A DNA stretch of 35,133 nt from Limisphaerales bacterium. Lineage in GTDB: Bacteria; Patescibacteriota; JACMRA01. The DNA lies in the NCBI GenBank assembly GCA_044238065.1, contig JBIIDY010000001.1, positions 1 through 35,133 of the forward strand, read 5' to 3'. How positions within the stretch are numbered: position 1 is the first letter of the stretch; each line of letters starts with the position of its first letter. The notes below the pieces were generated by a model. That model saw only the letters and a program-made list of their open reading frames with translations. It was not told the origin of the DNA and did not search any database. The position numbers and the translations under genes are program-made. Shown here piece after piece: positions 13,179 to 35,133 of the stretch.

Positions 13179-13207
13179 TTGACAAGTTTTGTAATTTTAT
13201 TTATAAT
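13179..13207 (+). promoter_or_regulatory. Perfect consensus sigma70 promoter (TTGACA-17 nt-TATAAT)
   Basis: TTGACA at 13179-13184, spacer agttttgtaattttatt (17 nt), TATAAT at 13202-13207. Confidence 0.7.
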
Positions 13208-13268
13208 ATATTTATTGACATCTGGAAAATCTATGGAATCAGCATAGAAATTCTTTAAAATATAAATG

Positions 13269-13298
13269 TTGACAAATTATAAAAAGTCAGTTTATATT
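13269..13298 (+). promoter_or_regulatory. Second strong sigma70-type promoter
   Basis: TTGACA at 13269-13274, an 18-nt spacer, TATATT at 13293-13298. Confidence 0.55.
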
Positions 13299-13304
13299 TA
13301 AACA

Positions 13305-13369
13305 CCTGATAAAACAGGCACAAACTACCAAGTTTGCGATTTCTCCCTACTGATTCTAGGGAGTTTTTG
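13305..13369 (+). ncRNA. Candidate 65-nt structured RNA or attenuating leader upstream of the antirepressor gene
   Basis: Runs from the predicted TSS near 13305 to the terminator. Hairpins are cctg-ataaaa-cagg, caaact-acca-agtttg, and ctcccta-ctgattc-tagggag followed by T5. Confidence 0.35.
13343..13369 (+). terminator. Intrinsic terminator in the antirepressor leader
   Basis: 7-bp stem ctcccta/tagggag, 7-nt loop, then tttttgt. It lies 115 nt upstream of the ATG at 13485. Confidence 0.6.
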
Positions 13370-13484
13370 TCGTCTGGACTTTTTCTGGACAAAAAAAAGA
13401 ACCCTCTAAAAGAGAGAACAAACCTTGTAAGTTGTTTTCATTTTAGCATAGAAAATTCACCTTGTCAAGTAATTTTTTATAGCT

Positions 13485-14369
13485 ATGTCTACTCTACACT
13501 CTGAGGCTCAAATTTCTGTTGCCTCCAATTCGCAAAGCCCTTTTGAGCTTATCAAAAAAACAAATTCTGCAGGTTTTGAAATCTGGTCAGCTCGGGAACT
13601 CCAAAAAGTTTTAGAATATTCAACTTGGCAAAAATTTGAAAAAGCAATTTTGGCAGTCAAAGAAGAATTTGAGTTTGAAAATTTGGGTTTATCAGCAAAC
13701 TTTGATTTAACCTATCGGGCAAGTCAATCTGGTAAAAATACTGTCAAACAAATTACAGACTACGAACTCTCACGCTTTTTTTGCTACAAATTAGCAATGC
13801 GAGGCGAAACTGATGCTTGTAAAAAATCAAGGACTTATTTTGCCGTCCAGACTAGAAAACAAGAATTAGCACCCACTCCGCAACCCACAGCACCAAAATC
13901 TTTTTCAATTAAGGAACTTTTGGAACAAAATCAAAATTGGCTTTTCAAACTTTCCAAAGAAGTTGAAACTCTAAAAATTGAAGTTGAAACCAAAGACAAC
14001 ACCATTTCCAATTTAACTCCCAAAGCTGATTTTGTAGATAATGTTTTGGTAAAAGGTAATACTGGATTGACTGCGATGTCCATAGTCGCCAAAGAAATGG
14101 GACTTGGTTCAGTCAGGCTTTACAAAATACTTAGAGATGAGAAAATTTGGTTTTGGGCTTTGAACGAACACGGCGTCAATGAAAATAATGTCAAGCAAGA
14201 TTATATTGATAATGGTAGTTTTGTGGTCAAGGCTTTTTATAGCGAGCGAGACAAAAGAACTTATGATAAAATTTTTGCCACAAACAAAGGCAAATTGCTT
14301 TGTTATAAAATCGTCAAAGAAAATACTCCAAGTTTTGAGATTAAATTGATTGAAAACAGTCAAAAATAG
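13485..14369 (+). CDS. Antirepressor: DinD-like N-terminal domain plus KilAC C-terminal domain
   Basis: N-terminus FELIKKTNSAGFEIWSARELQKVLEYSTWQKFEKAI (DinD-like). C-terminus LTPKADFVDNVLVKGNTGLTAMSIVAKEMGLGSVRLYKILRDEKIWF (KilAC-like). Confidence 0.75.
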   Translation: MSTLHSEAQISVASNSQSPFELIKKTNSAGFEIWSARELQKVLEYSTWQKFEKAILAVKEEFEFENLGLSANFDLTYRASQSGKNTVKQITDYELSRFFCYKLAMRGETDACKKSRTYFAVQTRKQELAPTPQPTAPKSFSIKELLEQNQNWLFKLSKEVETLKIEVETKDNTISNLTPKADFVDNVLVKGNTGLTAMSIVAKEMGLGSVRLYKILRDEKIWFWALNEHGVNENNVKQDYIDNGSFVVKAFYSERDKRTYDKIFATNKGKLLCYKIVKENTPSFEIKLIENSQK

Positions 14370-14486: not shown

Positions 14487-14612
14487 ATGTCAACAGACCA
14501 AATTTATTTAAAAAATCTCAAAAAATTAGTCAAGACACTTCGTGCTATGAAAGAATTGGATAAGGAAAAAACCAGAGAGTTGATTGAGGTTATTTTACTT
14601 CTATTAAATTAA
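14487..14612 (+). CDS. Possible 41-aa protein (MSTDQIYLKNLKKLVKTLRAMKELDKEKTRELIEVILLLLN)
   Basis: Hand-translated, with an ATG in the usual AT-rich context. It overlaps the 3' end of convergent gene 14590..15183 by 23 nt. Confidence 0.2.
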   Translation: MSTDQIYLKNLKKLVKTLRAMKELDKEKTRELIEVILLLLN

Positions 14613-15183
14613 ACTTCTTTTTAATTATCTCCAAGACAGCCCTTTGATCTAACCACTGGAACATTTGCTCTATTACAAACTCTTCGTCAAGTTTTCCCAG
14701 TTTTCGTTGGTCAAAGGGATAAACTGCCATAACTTCTCTACCATCACTGGTAGTTATTTTTTCTCTATATTTTAAAGACCATTTTTTACTTGCTTCAATT
14801 AGGGATTTATAAAGCTCCACATCTAGCAAAAAAACCTTGTCGTTAAGAGTTCTAAACCTGCCCTTATCAATCAGTCTTTTGATTTTAGTTCCAGCACCAA
14901 CGCCAAAATTAAGAACTTTTACCCCAGCATTGTATTTGGTTATAAATAATGGAATTTGGTTTAATTTTTCCTTGTCAAATAAAGAAAAACCCAAAGCATT
15001 TTCATCCGTTGGCATCTGCTCCATAAAATTACGGATTGTAAAATAAGTATCCCAGAAATTGCCATCATCAATTTCAATATCTGCGATGCTTTGTGATAAG
15101 TTTGTCATAGATAAAATATAGTTTTGTATAAATTTTGCCTTATGTTTTAATGAAATTTTGGGCAGTTGTTTTTGTTGTAGCAT
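14590..15183 (-). CDS. Hypothetical protein (197 aa); lone leftward gene inside the rightward block
   Basis: Long clean ORF with its own candidate promoter and long non-coding regions on both sides. No recognisable motif. Confidence 0.6.
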   Translation of the reverse strand: MLQQKQLPKISLKHKAKFIQNYILSMTNLSQSIADIEIDDGNFWDTYFTIRNFMEQMPTDENALGFSLFDKEKLNQIPLFITKYNAGVKVLNFGVGAGTKIKRLIDKGRFRTLNDKVFLLDVELYKSLIEASKKWSLKYREKITTSDGREVMAVYPFDQRKLGKLDEEFVIEQMFQWLDQRAVLEIIKKKFNLIEVK

Positions 15184-15255: not shown

Positions 15256-15575
15256 ATAAAATTTAATAACTAGGATTTTTCCTTGACATCATTTTAATTT
15301 TCATTCAAACTTCCACCAAGTCCTAAAAAACTTAATTTTACAGATAATAACTAACTGAAAAGGTAAGAAAATCTTTTTTTGAAAATAATTTTTTCGCAAG
15401 TATTTTATTTTTTCTAATTTGATTGTTTTTTTTGGGTTCGCTGCCCAGCTTTTTCTAAAAATCACGGAAAGGCGGAAAATAAAGTTTTAGTATTTTTTCA
15501 TTTTAAATTTTTTACCATTTTTTTGGGACATTTTTGTTTTGATTTCTGTTGTTAACTAAAATTTTCTTGTTCCAT

Positions 15576-16184: not shown

Positions 16185-16607
16185 ATGCTCCAAGCTAAAT
16201 ACTACCCAAAAAACTACACAGATCAAAAACCAAATTTAGAAAGGATGCATAAATTACATTCTGTATCTAAAACTGAAAAAGCCTATTTGGATGGCTTGGA
16301 GCAAAAACTAGGTCAAAAGATAATAAGACAAGTCGTATTTGGCAAATGGCTCGTGGACGGGCTACTAACCAACTCAAACGTAATTATTGAGTATGACGGC
16401 CCGCAAAATCATCAAAGTCCAAAAAAGCAACTCAAAGATGAAAAACGGGATGATGAATTTTTAAAAATGGGTTTTCAAATCTACCGTCTTCAATGGTATG
16501 AGTTTGTAAAAGATTCTAAACTTTACCAAAAAGCATTAAAAAACGCAGTGGAATTTTCTGCCAAAGATATTTCAATTTTAATCCAATTACAAAATCTTAA
16601 AAACTAA
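16185..16607 (+). CDS. DUF559/Vsr-like restriction-endonuclease-fold protein
   Basis: VDGLLTNSNVIIEYDGPQNH...DEKRDDEFLKMGFQIYRL matches the DUF559 core pattern. Confidence 0.6.
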   Translation: MLQAKYYPKNYTDQKPNLERMHKLHSVSKTEKAYLDGLEQKLGQKIIRQVVFGKWLVDGLLTNSNVIIEYDGPQNHQSPKKQLKDEKRDDEFLKMGFQIYRLQWYEFVKDSKLYQKALKNAVEFSAKDISILIQLQNLKN

Positions 16608-16633
16608 CTTAAAGCTAACCAAACTTTTTTAAT

Positions 16634-16789
16634 ATGCCAGCAAAACCTCACAAACCAACCCAAGAAGAAATGGAAAAATGGTATTTGGCAGAAACAAAGC
16701 CAAGCACACTATTTCCAAAAATAATCACTTTTTTTGTAGCAATCGCATTATTTTCTTTTTTCTCGCTTATTTTAAATAGTGTTTTATGA
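16634..16789 (+). CDS. Small protein with a C-terminal TM helix (51 aa)
   Basis: Hand-translated as MPAKPHKPTQEEMEKWYLAETKPSTLFPKIITFFVAIALFSFFSLILNSVL. It has an ATGA overlap with the next gene and fills an otherwise empty 178-bp gap. Confidence 0.5.
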   Translation: MPAKPHKPTQEEMEKWYLAETKPSTLFPKIITFFVAIALFSFFSLILNSVL

Positions 16790-17498: not shown

Positions 17499-17717
17499 AT
17501 GATCAATCAAGGCAAACCAAACATCGCCCAAGTCTTGGGTAAAAACTACAAACCACCAAGACCAAAAACACCAACAAAGCCAAAAGAAAAGCCAAAATGC
17601 CCGTTCTGTGGATCGCAAAATTCCAGACAGAAAAACGAAACAATTTTTAGGAAATGTAAAGATTGTCAACAACTTTTTATAACTCCAAACTCTTTTTTTA
17701 AAAATAAAAAATTCTAG
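17499..17717 (+). CDS. Basic zinc-ribbon protein (72 aa)
   Basis: CPFCGS ... CKDC, i.e. CxxC-N16-CxxC, with a K/P-rich N-terminus. Confidence 0.55.
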   Translation: MINQGKPNIAQVLGKNYKPPRPKTPTKPKEKPKCPFCGSQNSRQKNETIFRKCKDCQQLFITPNSFFKNKKF

Positions 17718-17867
17718 TTATTATCTAATTTATCATATTTTCTCTATGTTCACAAAAAATTACTTGACAAGAAATTTAAAAAGTTTCTTAATACTACCAG
17801 ATGTTAAGTGTAGTAAGAAGGAAAGCCTTACTAGACTTAATGTCTCTGGCGTTCTGCGTCAGCAAAT

Positions 17868-17900
17868 CCCCCTTGTAGCTTTCCACAGGGGGGCTTTTGT
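17868..17900 (+). terminator. Plus-strand intrinsic terminator ending the accessory operon
   Basis: ccccc(t)tgt-agctttcc-aca-ggggg followed by cttttgtcgtt. Two further hairpins precede it at 17811-17833 and 17846-17862. Confidence 0.55.
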
Positions 17901-17946
17901 CGTTCCCAATTATCTAAAAAACTTATATGTCAGATCCACCAAACGC

Positions 17947-17971
17947 AAAAAAACGAGCCCTGAGAAGCTCG
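17947..17971 (-). terminator. Canonical minus-strand intrinsic terminator
   Basis: The minus strand reads cgagc-ttctcagg-gctcg followed by T7 (17953-17947). Confidence 0.65.
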
Positions 17972-17997
17972 CAAAATCAAGATTTAAGAAATTATTC
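17947..17997 (-). ncRNA. Candidate small RNA of about 50 nt (countertranscript or oop-like) upstream of the replication gene
   Basis: Runs from the predicted TSS near 17997 (6 nt after the -10) to the T7 tract. Predicted RNA: GAAUAAUUUCUUAAAUCUUGAUUUUGCGAGCUUCUCAGGGCUCGUUUUUUU. Confidence 0.5.
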
Positions 17998-18003
17998 AAT
18001 CAC

Positions 18004-18032
18004 ATTATATCACAGATTCAACTATTCGTCAA
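18004..18032 (-). promoter_or_regulatory. Near-perfect extended -10 sigma70 promoter on the minus strand
   Basis: The minus strand reads TTGACG (18032-18027), a 17-nt spacer ending in TGa, then TATAAT (18009-18004). Confidence 0.65.
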
Positions 18033-18127
18033 GGGAATTTTTGAGAATGTCAGTTTTAAGCCAAAAAGTCCTGTTTTTTAAAATCAGGCAAACTCTTTTT
18101 ATTTAAATCTTATCTCAAATTATTAGT

Positions 18128-19270
18128 ATGTCCAAAAAGATAACAATCTTACCACAAATCAAAAAGATAAAATCACTAACCCCAACCGAAAAAAAAGTGG
18201 CTAGTGAAATTGCCAGATTCACCAACCAAGACAAATGGTTTTTTAAAGACCTAAACAACTTTGCCTCTGAGCTAGAAGTTAGCAAGGGAACTTTGAAAAA
18301 TGCTTATGTAAAACTTACCAAACTGGAATGGCTAGAAAAAGACAGAAATGGAAAATATTTTGACTATAAAATGACTCAAAAATTCTTTAATTTTGTAGCA
18401 AATTATGAATCAAATAACAGCCATATTTTCGCTCATTTTAGCAAAGAAACAATGACCGATAAATTACCGAATAATGACCGATTGATGACCGATAAATTAC
18501 CGAATAATGACCAGTCCGTGATAAAAATTACCTTTCCGTCCAGTGTGGAAGCGACAAACCAGCCCTCTAATATATTAAATAATGAATGTATTAAGGATTT
18601 AAATAATGAAATGGTGAAACCTCTCTCACCACGACCGACCGCCACACTTTCAAAATTGGAAATTCTAAAACAAGAAATTCAAGCTAACCCACTTTACCCA
18701 AAAATAATTTCACTTTACCCAAAAATTCCAAGCGAGAGATTAGAAACTGAAATAGAATTTGCTTTAACCAAATACATTGAACTTGGACGCACCAGCGGAG
18801 CTTTTAGCTACATCAAATCTTATTTGTCAAATGCTGATTTCAAAGATGTCTTAACCAACAAAAAACTAGAAATTGAAGACGAAATAAATTCAAGGAGAAA
18901 AACTGCCTACGAACAAAAAGCAAGCCAAAATTCAAGCCAAATCACTACCACAAGCCAAATTGAAGTTGATCCAAATGATTTCCAAACTCAAAATGATTTT
19001 GCTAAATTTACTCAAAAATTAGATGCTGAAGGTAAAAGCTACAAAGTTTTAAGAATTAACTTTACTCGTCAAAGGATCTGGGATGAAGCGACTGAAGCAA
19101 ACGAAAAAGCCCCTGTCGCAACACCAGCACCCCAAAAAAGCGAAGCAAAGACACCAATGGAGATAATGATGGAAGCAATGAAAAAATCTAACCCACAACT
19201 AGCACAGCAAATGGAAAGAGGAGCAAAAAACCCTTCTATCAATATCGCTCAAAAACTAGTTCAAAATTAA
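18128..19270 (+). CDS. Putative replication initiator/replisome organiser (N-terminal winged-helix)
   Basis: The N-terminus TPTEKKVASEIARFTNQDKWFFKDLNNFASELEVSKGTLKNAYVKLTKLEWL is wHTH-like. Phased DNA repeats lie inside the gene. It is located ahead of the nucleotide-metabolism genes. Confidence 0.45.
   Translation: MSKKITILPQIKKIKSLTPTEKKVASEIARFTNQDKWFFKDLNNFASELEVSKGTLKNAYVKLTKLEWLEKDRNGKYFDYKMTQKFFNFVANYESNNSHIFAHFSKETMTDKLPNNDRLMTDKLPNNDQSVIKITFPSSVEATNQPSNILNNECIKDLNNEMVKPLSPRPTATLSKLEILKQEIQANPLYPKIISLYPKIPSERLETEIEFALTKYIELGRTSGAFSYIKSYLSNADFKDVLTNKKLEIEDEINSRRKTAYEQKASQNSSQITTTSQIEVDPNDFQTQNDFAKFTQKLDAEGKSYKVLRINFTRQRIWDEATEANEKAPVATPAPQKSEAKTPMEIMMEAMKKSNPQLAQQMERGAKNPSINIAQKLVQN
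18452..18517 (+). repeat. 2 x 33-bp tandem repeat containing five ACCGA motifs at exact 11-bp spacing (iteron-like)
   Basis: ACCGA starts at 18455, 18466, 18477, 18488 and 18499. The repeat encodes MTDKLPNNDRL / MTDKLPNNDQS. Confidence 0.8.
18690..18726 (+). repeat. Two copies of the 16-bp direct repeat cactttacccaaaaat, 21 bp apart
   Basis: Copies at 18690-18705 and 18711-18726, read directly. Confidence 0.8.
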
Positions 19271-20708: not shown

Positions 20709-21122
20709 ATGAGATTAGAGAACCCATCACACGAGGCTTTTTGTCTTGAATATATGAAAAATGGCTTTAACGCGACTAGAGCCTATATGTCTGTTTATCC
20801 AGATACAAAAGAACCATCAGCAAGAGCCAGTGCAAGTGAATTGCTAACAAATCTTAACATCACCAAAAGAATAACCGAAATACAAGATGAATTAGCGGAA
20901 AACTGGGGCATAGACATTCAAGAAGTGGTTAATTCAATCAAAAAAACAAGGGCATCAGCAAAATCTCAAAATGACTTTAACGCCTCACTAAAAGCCGATG
21001 ATATGCTACTGAAAATAAGAGGCGGTTATGCGGTTGAAAAGAAAGAATTCATTACTCCACAATTCCCAACTCAAATCAATTTTCAACTTTTAGAACAATT
21101 AGATGAGCCAAACAAACCTTAA
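20709..21122 (+). CDS. terS: Terminase small subunit
   Basis: HEAFCLEYMKNGFNATRAYMSVYP...SARASASELLTNLNITKRI is the Terminase_2-type N-terminal pattern. It overlaps terL. Confidence 0.75.
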   Translation: MRLENPSHEAFCLEYMKNGFNATRAYMSVYPDTKEPSARASASELLTNLNITKRITEIQDELAENWGIDIQEVVNSIKKTRASAKSQNDFNASLKADDMLLKIRGGYAVEKKEFITPQFPTQINFQLLEQLDEPNKP

Positions 21123-28778: not shown

Positions 28779-29837
28779 ATGTCAATTCAATTAGGTTCTC
28801 AACAATTCGCAGGTGCAAAGTTTGAAGCTGTTCGTAATACAGCCGAGCTTGTGCCAAATATAATTTTTAAATTAACTGAAAACAGTTTGAAACTGGAAAA
28901 GCAAAATGTAGCGGACAAAATTATTATGGGAAACCGTGATAATACTTATAATAACCGTTTTACATCAAAAAGTGTTAGCGGAAAAATAATGGGATCAATC
29001 AATACAAAAGATATTGGTTTTCTTTTAAAAATGGCGATGGCTCAACCGACCAGCTCAACCGCTTTGGGAGCGACTACCCACACTTTTAAGCCACTAAATT
29101 TGACAAGCGGAGCGGCTAATGTAAAATTGCCAAGTTTCACTTTTTTTTGGAGTGATGGAGCTTATGGCTATTACAAAGCTAATGGTTGTGTGATTGACAC
29201 ACTTTCTTTGACGATTGGCGAGACTGAAACCACTTTTGAAGCGGAAATAAAAGGCTTAAATTTAGTAGAAGTTACCAATGGAACTGAAAAAACAAACATC
29301 TTGTCGGCGATTACTTATTCCGCACCAGATCCTTATTTAAATTTTGGAAATGTTGTGGTAAAATTTGCCAGCACTTTCGCAGGACTTTCCGCTGGAACTG
29401 TTTTGAATGTAAAACCAGATATTAAAATTGATATTAAAAATAATGTTGAATTTGACAAATCTAGCTCATCAGCACCTTACGCAGAGGCTACTAATTTTGA
29501 TACTCTTGCCAAAGGTTTTGAGGCTAGTGTTGAACTTTCTTTTTACGATAAAACAGAAAATAAAGGGCTTTACGACGGCTTCTTGTCCAGCGTAGACTCA
29601 AGCAATGTTGAAGCTTTTGAAATCAAACTTGAAAACCAATCTTACGGAGTTTTGGGAACATCTGCCCTTTACAATTCCTTGACTTTTCAAATCCCTCAAG
29701 CCTTGCCAGTTTTGGAAATTACAAGACCAATAGACGGCTTTATTGAAGTCAATCTAAAAATGGAAAATTTGGTCAACACCCCAGCACAAGGCTTTTCAAT
29801 TCAATCTATTCTTACAAATACAACCGCTACTTACTAG
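28779..29837 (+). CDS. Major tail (tube) protein
   Basis: 352-aa ORF preceding the chaperone pair and the tape measure. There is no sheath gene, which implies a non-contractile tail. Confidence 0.65.
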   Translation: MSIQLGSQQFAGAKFEAVRNTAELVPNIIFKLTENSLKLEKQNVADKIIMGNRDNTYNNRFTSKSVSGKIMGSINTKDIGFLLKMAMAQPTSSTALGATTHTFKPLNLTSGAANVKLPSFTFFWSDGAYGYYKANGCVIDTLSLTIGETETTFEAEIKGLNLVEVTNGTEKTNILSAITYSAPDPYLNFGNVVVKFASTFAGLSAGTVLNVKPDIKIDIKNNVEFDKSSSSAPYAEATNFDTLAKGFEASVELSFYDKTENKGLYDGFLSSVDSSNVEAFEIKLENQSYGVLGTSALYNSLTFQIPQALPVLEITRPIDGFIEVNLKMENLVNTPAQGFSIQSILTNTTATY

Positions 29838-34903: not shown

Positions 34904-35133
34904 ATGTCTTTTACTTTACCAAATCCGCAAAAAAACGACTTCGCAAGTGGTCAAATCTTGTCTTTTTCACATCTTAATAATAACGCAAATAATGTAATCG
35001 CAATGGCTAACTATATTGGAAGTGCTAATATGATGTCTGCTAATTTAATAAGTACTTACGCTTTGCCGTCAACTGCTGGTTATAATAATTTGGCAGGCTG
35101 GACATTAAGCAAATCTGTTGGTGCTAGCGGCGT
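34904..35133 (+). CDS. Tail fibre protein, 5' portion (continues at base 1 through the junction)
   Basis: ATG at 34904 in an aaatATG context. It stays open to the window end, and from 35007 it duplicates bases 1-127. Confidence 0.65.
   Translation, partial: MSFTLPNPQKNDFASGQILSFSHLNNNANNVIAMANYIGSANMMSANLISTYALPSTAGYNNLAGWTLSKSVGASG
35007..35133. repeat. Terminal overlap, right copy (identical to 1-127)
   Basis: Same 127-bp string as the window start. It lies inside a coding region, which fits circular closure better than a physical end. Confidence 0.95.

Follow-up and report, generated by a model that had tools for sequence, protein, structure and literature searches.

The 35,133-nt window analysed here (contig JBIIDY010000001.1) is a complete, circularly permuted phage genome of 35,006 bp, whose first 127 nt (1–127) recur at the window end (35007–35133), so that the genome is either circular or terminally redundant. 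In this genome, a replication initiator gene with weakly O-like family matches (18128–19270, plus strand) is preceded by a compact cassette in which two predicted small-RNA genes face each other: a very short unit on the minus strand and a structured RNA on the plus strand, both lying within an open reading frame (ORF) of 111 codons that spans the whole cassette (17746–18081, plus strand). The first-pass annotation had described the minus-strand unit as isolated among plus-strand genes, which agrees with the long ORFs taken as genes between 15725 and 34899, all of them on the plus strand; the nearest long minus-strand gene ORF is 14590–15183.

The minus-strand unit begins with a promoter, P(−), whose −35 hexamer TTGACG (18032–18027) and extended −10 element (18004–18012, made up of TG at 18012–18011, one base and TATAAT at 18009–18004) are apparent both in the sequence and in a consensus scan, which gives the promoter 11 of 12 matches plus the TG. 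The spacer between both hexamers is of 17 nt (18026–18010), and an invariant TTCCC, seen in the alignment of relatives, precedes the −35 (18037–18033). The predicted RNA of about 51 nt (17947–17997), with a start near 17997 placed from the position of the −10, would hold a U-rich and mostly unstructured 5′ tail of around 26–28 nt, followed by a terminator hairpin (17954–17971) in which 17971–17966 pairs with 17959–17954 (six pairs, one of them G-U) around the 6-nt loop UCUCAG, and by a U7 tract (T7 in the DNA, 17953–17947). The scan lists this terminator at 17972–17953, together with a plus-strand terminator at 17868–17893. All the promoter and terminator elements that had been claimed at 18032–17947 are therefore present where they were placed. 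Between the two facing terminators lies a block, CCACCA(A/C)ACGC (17936–17946), conserved in most variants. An ATG just before this block is kept in all variants and opens a second frame (17927–18106, 59 codons), rejected as a gene because it is broken in the relatives L005 and L009.

Relatives of the cassette were gathered by four routes, resulting in nine loci and eight distinct sequence variants. Homologues of the initiator protein led to L004 and L005, and the translated 17746–18081 ORF, which matched 10 database “proteins”, led to L008, L009, L010, and L166, while a DNA pattern built from the cassette retrieved L007 from Joint Genome Institute (JGI) metagenomes and a second DNA pattern retrieved L167 from IMG/VR; a search of IMG/VR with the initiator protein found no relatives. 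Among the eight variants, the −35 of P(−) is always TTGAC(A/G), the −10 is TATAAT in seven and TAAAAT in L005, and the TGn, which no variant has lost, reads TGC in L009 and TGA in the seven others. The motif TTCCCTTGAC (TTTCCTTGAC in L167) and the U-tract are likewise kept across the eight-sequence alignment. The spacer is constant at 17 nt, with a sequence that exists in at least three unrelated versions, and the 5′ tail of the RNA varies too: two variants, L004/L007 and L167, have 12 nt inserted there.

The terminator stem shows the same combination of constant form and changing sequence. It occurs as CGAGCU/GGCUCG, CCGACU/AGUCGG, CCAGCU/AGCUGG, CGAGUC/GACUCG, CCAGUU/AAGCUGG, and CCGCU/AGCGG, with 97.9% of the alignment cells paired and changes on both sides in five of the six pairs. 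None of 500 column shuffles equalled the hairpin in the percentage of paired cells or in the covariation score, and only one of 500 did so in the number of pairs changed on both sides; as a control, sliding the partner strand by 1–3 columns left only 10–40% of the cells paired. The first-pass annotation had proposed beforehand that hexamers and stem should be conserved in relatives with compensatory changes, and this is the pattern seen. Moreover, the stem changes introduce non-conservative residues in the overlapping ORF (SPEKL, DSEKS, PLGKA), which argues for selection on the hairpin and not on the peptide. Judged from this comparative evidence, the minus-strand unit is a genuine, conserved, and very short predicted transcription unit.

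The number of such units in the genome also exceeds the chance expectation. A genome-wide scan for promoters with at least 11 of 12 matches, followed within 15–120 nt by a hairpin and a T-rich tail, returned four units in the 35-kb genome, whereas 100 resampled sequences (first-order Markov) contained 0.03 on average and never more than one, and strong promoters number eight versus 1.1 expected. The fold energy of the 59-nt minus-strand stretch alone is unexceptional (z = −0.78), so the case for more than chance is based on the joint geometry of promoter and terminator and on their conservation. In addition, the promoter motif TTCCCTTGACR-N14-TGATATAAT is also found directly upstream of tRNA and other genes in many Clostridia genomes, and this recurrence indicates that real strong promoters take this form. 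As a means of finding homologues of the cassette, the corresponding pattern ATTATATCA-N14-YGTCAAGGGAA was discarded: in genomes and IMG/VR it returned more than 150 generic strong promoters, mostly from Clostridia and situated before tRNA genes, leaders, and ordinary genes, and no homologues. The pattern AGGCAAACTCTTTTTATT gave two matches, L171 and L172, both unrelated, and among the 50 loci matched by AAAAATYACTTGACWARAA the cassette is found in none except L167. A fourth compact unit in the window (TTGACA-16-TAAAAT at 29100–29127 and a hairpin with a T-rich tail at 29187–29202, plus strand) lies inside a 352-codon ORF (28779–29837) among the structural genes, and may be an internal promoter or a chance match.

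Opposite this unit, the plus strand holds a promoter of its own, P(+) (17764–17792), identified in the alignment, with an A-rich upstream tract, TTGACA (17764–17769), a 17-nt spacer, and CTTAAT (17787–17792). The −35 is invariant save for TTGACT in two variants, the spacer is always of 17 nt, and the −10 is TTTAAT in most relatives. From this promoter, a three-hairpin RNA of around 107 nt (17798–17904) with a conserved fold is predicted to begin near 17798, at the base of a long 5′ hairpin (17799–17845), and to continue through a middle hairpin (17846–17862) and the terminator (17868–17893), of 9–17 bp across variants, to a U-rich tail. Its minimum free energy in the window is −45.7 kcal/mol (z = −5.8), with z values from −4.7 to −6.0 in the four variants that have the three-hairpin fold, the window included, and of −2.4 in L007, and compensatory changes are observed in 14 pairs of the consensus fold. 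The first-pass annotation had noted a plus-strand terminator at this site; the terminator is present, not as a simple one, but as the 3′ end of this conserved structured RNA with its own promoter.

Within the plus-strand RNA, the loop at the tip of the 5′ hairpin and that of the terminator are complementary to each other, as in “kissing” loops, and both change together between relatives. In the window, the core of the first loop is GGAAAGC (17820–17826) and that of the second is GCUUUCC (17878–17884), while the corresponding pairs are GAGAGAC and GUCUCUC in L005, UGGGAGGC and GCCUCCCA in L008, CUGGUAU and AUACCAG in L009, CUGCUAGA and UCUAGCAG in L010, and GAGCAAC and GUUGCUC in L167; in L004/L007 the pair GUCUUA and UAAGAC, read by eye from the folds, is of 6 nt only. 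In six variants the cognate complementarity extends over 7–8 nt (up to 9 in L008), versus 2–5 nt for non-cognate combinations, and only 1–21 of 5000 loop shuffles reach each cognate match. The structured plus-strand RNA is probably the main regulator of the cassette. A type I toxin–antitoxin system of the par/Fst type was considered and rejected, since the plus-strand RNA offers just one short reading frame, of 25 codons in the window, and this frame is missing or broken in L008, L009, and L010.

The 17746–18081 ORF that covers both RNAs is open in all nine loci, with lengths of 111–167 codons, whereas the other two plus-strand frames are full of stops. This includes the loci that were found without using the ORF (L004, L005, L007, and L167), and the indels within the cassette keep its frame. 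The expectation of the first-pass annotation that the reading frame would be lost in relatives is thus contradicted. The “residues” that are conserved in the translated product, however, coincide with nucleic acid signals: MFTKNYLT corresponds to the plus-strand −35 and its A-tract, G.F.V to the plus-strand terminator (its U-tract and G-rich arm), KKTS.EKLA to the A-run and hairpin of the minus-strand terminator, and IISQ...LVKG to P(−). The start codon of the ORF lies 18 nt 5′ of the plus-strand −35, and since it precedes P(+), transcripts from the cassette’s own promoter cannot encode the ORF, which only transcripts of the upstream operon can. At the other end, the initiator gene begins 34–46 nt past the ORF stop in most loci.

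The cassette is found directly upstream of an O-like initiator gene at every locus, although the genes around it differ. The initiators behind it fall in different PHROG families, their 3′ partner is either a DnaC-like loader or a DnaB helicase, and the gene on the 5′ side encodes a zinc-ribbon protein, a DNA methyltransferase, or a product without assigned function; on the other hand, further relatives of the initiator have an unrelated 157-residue gene or a GIY-YIG gene at the cassette position. This variety of initiators and neighbours indicates that the cassette can be exchanged as a module and keeps its place at the head of the replication genes. Its 3′ segment (AAGCCAAAAAGTCCTGTTTTTT...AGGCAAACTCTTTTTATTTAAAT, 18050–18110, plus strand), which reaches the initiator start region, is conserved in full in five variants and from AAAAAGTCC onward in L167, despite the differing initiator genes. 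The initiator gene itself contains an 11-bp unit (AATGACCGATT-like) repeated 5.6 times in tandem (18451–18512), which encodes the repeated peptide MTDKLPNND and, in a location comparable to that of the origin within lambda gene O, represents a candidate iteron-type origin. Two direct copies, 85% identical, of a 20-nt sequence, CAAACTCTTTTT(T/A)T(A/T)TAAAT, flank the cassette, the first lying at the end of the upstream gene (17686–17705) and the second just before the initiator gene (18089–18108). The repeat may either serve as a shared element for starting translation or mark a boundary of recombination; CAAACTC is also found 5′ of the cassette in L009 and L010.

The cassette is also where close relatives diverge. 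The window and L005 are 96–100% identical per 100 nt over most of 10.8 kb, compared with 88, 81, and 63% in successive stretches across the cassette, the minimum falling over the minus-strand unit, and the divergence at synonymous sites (dS) in the ORF frame is 0.37 versus 0.03–0.10 in flanking genes. Three short islands with indels (near 15383, 16583, and 20850–20950) show identities of 39–84%; the one at 16583–16650 (67%) is near a 51-codon ORF (16634–16789), and the one at 20850–21010 (39–82%, with indels) lies in the 3′ part of the small terminase gene. Furthermore, segments of the cassette have been reassorted: one P(−) allele is common to L005, L010, and L166 and another to the window, L008, and L009, and L166 has the plus-strand RNA of L009, the P(−) of L010, and a hairpin found in no other variant. 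Divergence and reassortment of this kind would be expected of a specificity determinant, for which they are weak evidence, as recombination alone could yield them.

A second cassette of like design (13179–13468) is found in the same genome, 5′ of the antirepressor gene (start codon at 13485). It holds a consensus P(+) (13179–13207, plus strand), a first hairpin (13230–13248) with the loop GAAUCAG (13236–13242), a terminator (13343–13363) with the loop CUGAUUC (13350–13356), and, on the minus strand, a convergent P(−) with an extended −10 including TG (13468–13440) and a terminator (13416–13402). No single ORF extends across this second cassette, and for this reason the open ORF is not a general feature of the design. 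A further promoter-like site is present inside it (13269–13298).

Regarding the phage itself, its genes include an integrase-like gene, those for an endolysin, an Erf recombinase, the antirepressor, ThyX, the small and large terminase subunits, and a tape-measure protein, together with a portal-like protein with a weak match (E = 4 × 10−4), and its G+C content is about 33%. It belongs to a family of temperate, siphovirus-like phages that have not been cultivated. The same genome, opened near 17564, is present as a Logan contig, and a DNA search of deposited phages with the 3 kb around the site as query gave no match. Among the matches listed, the nearest large terminase subunits, with 33–40% amino acid identity, are from phages of Flavobacterium, Cellulophaga, Bacteroides, and Polaribacter. 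The 30 nt upstream of each of the 50 ORFs taken as genes contain no Shine-Dalgarno sequence, and many of these genes have a CTTTTT-like T-rich motif 15–30 nt upstream of their start codons.

How these elements might work together can be outlined from their arrangement. No sigma-70-like promoter was seen, by consensus scan or by reading of the sequence, between P(−) and the initiator start codon, and with none between the cassette and the initiator ATG, rightward transcripts must cross the plus-strand terminator and then the convergent unit. We consider it rather likely that the minus-strand unit acts as a cis-antisense, convergent-promoter gate of the oop/countertranscript kind within a new two-RNA cassette of about 400 bp, which probably gates the expression of the replication gene. 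The signals, their conservation, their covariation, and their constant position relative to the initiator gene are observed in silico, and from them we infer transcription itself, the direction of regulation, and the mechanism. The plus-strand terminator would halt most transcripts begun at the cassette’s own promoter, and the minus-strand unit would represent a second gate, whose polymerases could collide with or occlude those that read through, as described for lambda pO against pR. Its 51-nt RNA would also pair perfectly with the 5′ leader of the read-through initiator mRNA, leading to cleavage, to uncoupling of translation, or to both, while the co-varying loops may set a specificity of the immunity or incompatibility type. 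Finally, the open ORF might allow ribosomes on upstream operon transcripts to carry the polymerase through the hairpins, resulting in two states of initiator expression.

Several observations weigh against this gate. The predicted minus-strand RNA lies 131–181 nt upstream of the initiator start codon at 18128 and does not overlap the start region, so a direct block of the translation start is excluded. Its fold energy does not stand out in some of the variants (z between −0.7 and −3.4 across relatives). The −10 of P(+), C/TTTAAT, is without the canonical A at position 2, which is also why the consensus scan does not list this promoter. An ORF that is always open is not explained by a purely non-coding model alone; the simplest way to reconcile both would be that translation through the cassette, and not the peptide, has been selected. 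As for the host, the main sigma factor of Bacteroidota prefers TTTG and TAnnTTTG, not TTGACA and TATAAT. Given terminase relatives from Bacteroidota phages and genes without Shine-Dalgarno sequences, the host perhaps has an unusual promoter code, and a Bacteroidota host would use one different from that assumed here.

The behaviour of the ORF also raises the question of whether 17746–18081 is an ordinary, fast-evolving protein gene, in which the promoter and terminator motifs are incidental or at most internal signals. The frame is intact at all nine loci, including those retrieved through the initiator or through DNA patterns, which shows that its openness is not only a matter of ascertainment; the other plus-strand frames hold many stops, indels respect the frame, and the ORF is packed against the upstream gene like a member of the operon, with a gap of 1–52 nt. 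Nevertheless, its variable columns are spread evenly over the codon positions (62/62/68, versus 75/49/89 in a flanking gene at comparably diverged loci), and its ratio of non-synonymous to synonymous substitution rates (dN/dS) is 0.42–1.14, versus 0.05–0.38 for closely related pairs of flanking genes; the far more diverged initiator genes, whose synonymous sites are almost saturated, give 0.37–0.69. Codon usage in the ORF scores −0.044 per codon, versus 0.207 ± 0.067 for the genes of this phage, the product has no match to a Pfam or PHROG family, and the AlphaFold model of its 111 residues is of low confidence (predicted local distance difference test score, pLDDT, 51.7; predicted template modelling score, pTM, 0.27). 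To this must be added that the positions of the conserved “residues” are exactly those of the −35 and −10 elements, of the T/A runs, and of the G-rich arm of the terminator, that both hairpins co-vary as RNA with radical amino acid changes, and that a strong intrinsic terminator lies in the middle of the ORF in every variant. A protein gene is therefore unlikely, and the ORF, by these measures, appears to be kept open without selection at the protein level. The first-pass verdict that the ORF is probably not real holds in that codon periodicity, a low dN/dS, gene-like codon usage, and a known family are all missing, but not in regard to the frame, open in nine of nine loci. Just 5′ of the cassette, the 72-codon zinc-ribbon-like gene 17499–17717 has the lowest codon-usage score of the accepted genes (−0.029), and is under purifying selection between relatives (dN/dS 0.11–0.38).

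The remaining explanations concern the nature of the signals. The RNA from the minus strand might mainly act in trans, through a U-rich seed, on other phage or host messages, with its position being secondary. An A/U-rich single-stranded tail, a terminator hairpin, and a U-tail make up the anatomy of many chaperone-dependent small RNAs, and in L009 the loop of the minus-strand RNA matches the linker of its plus-strand counterpart perfectly over 10 nt. However, this match is missing in L166, which has the same plus-strand RNA, the tail sequence differs between close relatives, no positionally conserved complementary site was found across loci in a search of the flanks, of the region around the initiator start, and of the plus-strand RNA, and AU-rich matches of 7–8 nt are, by our own estimate, at chance level for this composition, all of which makes a trans-acting role quite improbable. 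A complementarity of 8–9 nt between the antisense target and the initiator leader, seen in the window, was dismissed as well, since the alignment shows it not to be conserved and it is at chance level for the composition. We find it still harder to accept that the motifs are conserved without being promoters in the true host, for instance a Bacteroidota, and owe their conservation to something like recombination-module boundaries, even if the terminase matches listed, the lack of Shine-Dalgarno sequences in any gene, and the mosaic nature of the cassette, whose segment alleles reassort between loci, would fit. The eight near-consensus sigma-70-type promoters where 1.1 were expected, the conserved hexamers around variable spacers, and the hairpin with U-tract that follows the promoters at a suitable distance speak otherwise, and a terminase identity of 33–40% is a weak indicator of the host. 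Least probable of all, in our opinion, is that the hairpins, A/T runs, and inverted repeats are part of an origin or a protein-binding region instead of transcription units. The region does adjoin the initiator gene, it is AT-rich with inverted repeats and the conserved CCACCA block, and the oop/pO region of lambda influences origin function (PMC3985674). Yet two hexamers with a fixed spacing of 17 nt, a TG, and a free spacer are a polymerase-recognition signature, the stems tolerate G-U pairs, which fits RNA and not DNA cruciforms, and the iteron-like 11-bp repeats are elsewhere, inside the initiator gene. In addition, the loop pairs differ wholly between genomes with 96–100% identical surrounding genes, the initiator included, without any cognate change in a protein.

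The convergent gate remains the preferred reading, and the whole two-RNA cassette, with its co-varying loops and its presence twice in the genome, is on this comparative evidence a more interesting object than the minus-strand unit alone. A broader idea, which we advance only tentatively when taken as a whole, is that of an RNA-only switch used twice in the genome, before the antirepressor and before the initiator, made of two convergent small-RNA genes, a loop pair, and an always-open ORF. In such a switch, transcripts born in the cassette would stay untranslated and would fold, terminate, and accumulate as small RNAs, whereas upstream operon transcripts would be translated through the cassette, the ribosome preventing the hairpins and the genes being expressed. 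The loop pair and the antisense RNA would confer allele specificity, as an exchangeable determinant of immunity or incompatibility that evolves by loop covariation and reassortment. Antisense small RNAs that set replication or immunity are textbook matter for lambda, P1, P4, P22, and plasmids, and to our knowledge are almost unknown in uncultivated phages. The cassette described here is compact and alignable, and covariation is seen in it independently at three levels: in the hairpin of the minus-strand RNA, in the stems of its plus-strand counterpart, and between the two loops. Its design is used at two sites in one genome, and it has been exchanged between phages with different initiator genes. 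It also offers a clear case of a “protein” ORF, of the sort reported by gene callers, whose selected features are RNA and promoter signals, and, if the idea of specificity is true, it would represent a new and purely RNA-based determinant of phage heteroimmunity.

Among known systems, Rfam offers no direct counterpart: at gathering and permissive thresholds nothing meaningful was found, with no oop, C4, or significant countertranscript family. The only countertranscript match, ctRNA_pND324, falls in the second cassette and is not significant (E = 1.5, 20.5 bits against a threshold of 45 bits). The closest parallel in layout is lambda oop, which is 77 nt long, compared with around 51 nt for the RNA predicted here. 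RNAs of the oop type are located between a regulator gene of the cII type and an initiator of the O type, overlap cII at its 3′ end, and have their target message cut by RNase III. In both cases, here in silico, a short leftward RNA with its own promoter and intrinsic terminator opposes a rightward operon, directly 5′ of an O-type initiator gene that holds candidate origin repeats. The oop RNA is made leftward from pO, adjoining gene O, and suppresses cII (PMC5869508), and the pO promoter lowers convergent transcription from pR and modulates replication (PMC3985674). Like oop, the RNA described here is antisense to the gene or ORF just upstream (PMC5869508). The ORF overlapped here shows neither protein-level constraint nor a match, cII-like or other, in Pfam or PHROG; the two RNAs are unrelated in sequence and in Rfam, and the one described here faces, some 50 nt away, a dedicated structured plus-strand RNA gene, which lambda does not have.

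Plasmid countertranscripts resemble the minus-strand RNA in anatomy, above all the smallest of them, RNAII from pMV158. This RNA controls repB, whose translation it has been reported to inhibit; its 5′ tail is 17 nt long, its hairpin has 8 bp and a loop of 6 nt, and a U-tail follows (PMC4485353). Both RNAs share a single-stranded 5′ tail, one hairpin/terminator of 6–8 bp with a loop of 4–6 nt, a U-tail, and a length of about 50 nt, and both are made opposite the leader of an initiator mRNA (PMC4485353). As in plasmid countertranscripts, allele differences could define specificity groups. On the other hand, the element described here belongs to a phage and has no significant match to a countertranscript family of Rfam, and its minus-strand RNA is not complementary to the translation-initiation region of the initiator (17947–17997, compared with the ATG at 18128); because it misses this region, a mechanism of the pMV158 or R1 type is not directly transferable. 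In IncI1/IncB (repY-repZ, with Inc RNA) and R1 (tap-repA, with CopA) plasmids, the initiator gene follows a translated leader ORF, and both a small antisense RNA and pairing between distant RNA loops are involved (PMC8053102); the cassette likewise places a leader ORF before the initiator gene, together with loop pairing and a small antisense RNA. However, the plasmid antisense RNA binds the pseudoknot-forming loop and blocks translation of the leader, whereas the one predicted here lies downstream of both pairing loops; moreover, the pairing partner is a terminator loop instead of the ribosome-binding region, and the leader ORF exceeds 110 codons.

For the plus-strand RNA, the nearest analogues are CI RNA from P4 and c4 from P1 and P7. 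These are same-strand immunity RNAs in the leader of a replication or antirepressor operon, where pairing controls premature termination or translation, and heteroimmune relatives of P4, P1, and P7 differ by compensatory changes. The plus-strand RNA differs from them in the lack of a C4 match in Rfam, in having its own promoter-like site and terminator instead of processing, and in that the pairing would be between two hairpin loops, one being that of the terminator; in common with P4 CI and P1 c4, its short complementary elements lie on a single transcript and change together from one relative to another. The oop/countertranscript-like label given in the first-pass annotation does not extend to family membership or to an overlap with the initiator start codon, but it does describe the position, the anatomy, and the conservation of the minus-strand unit.

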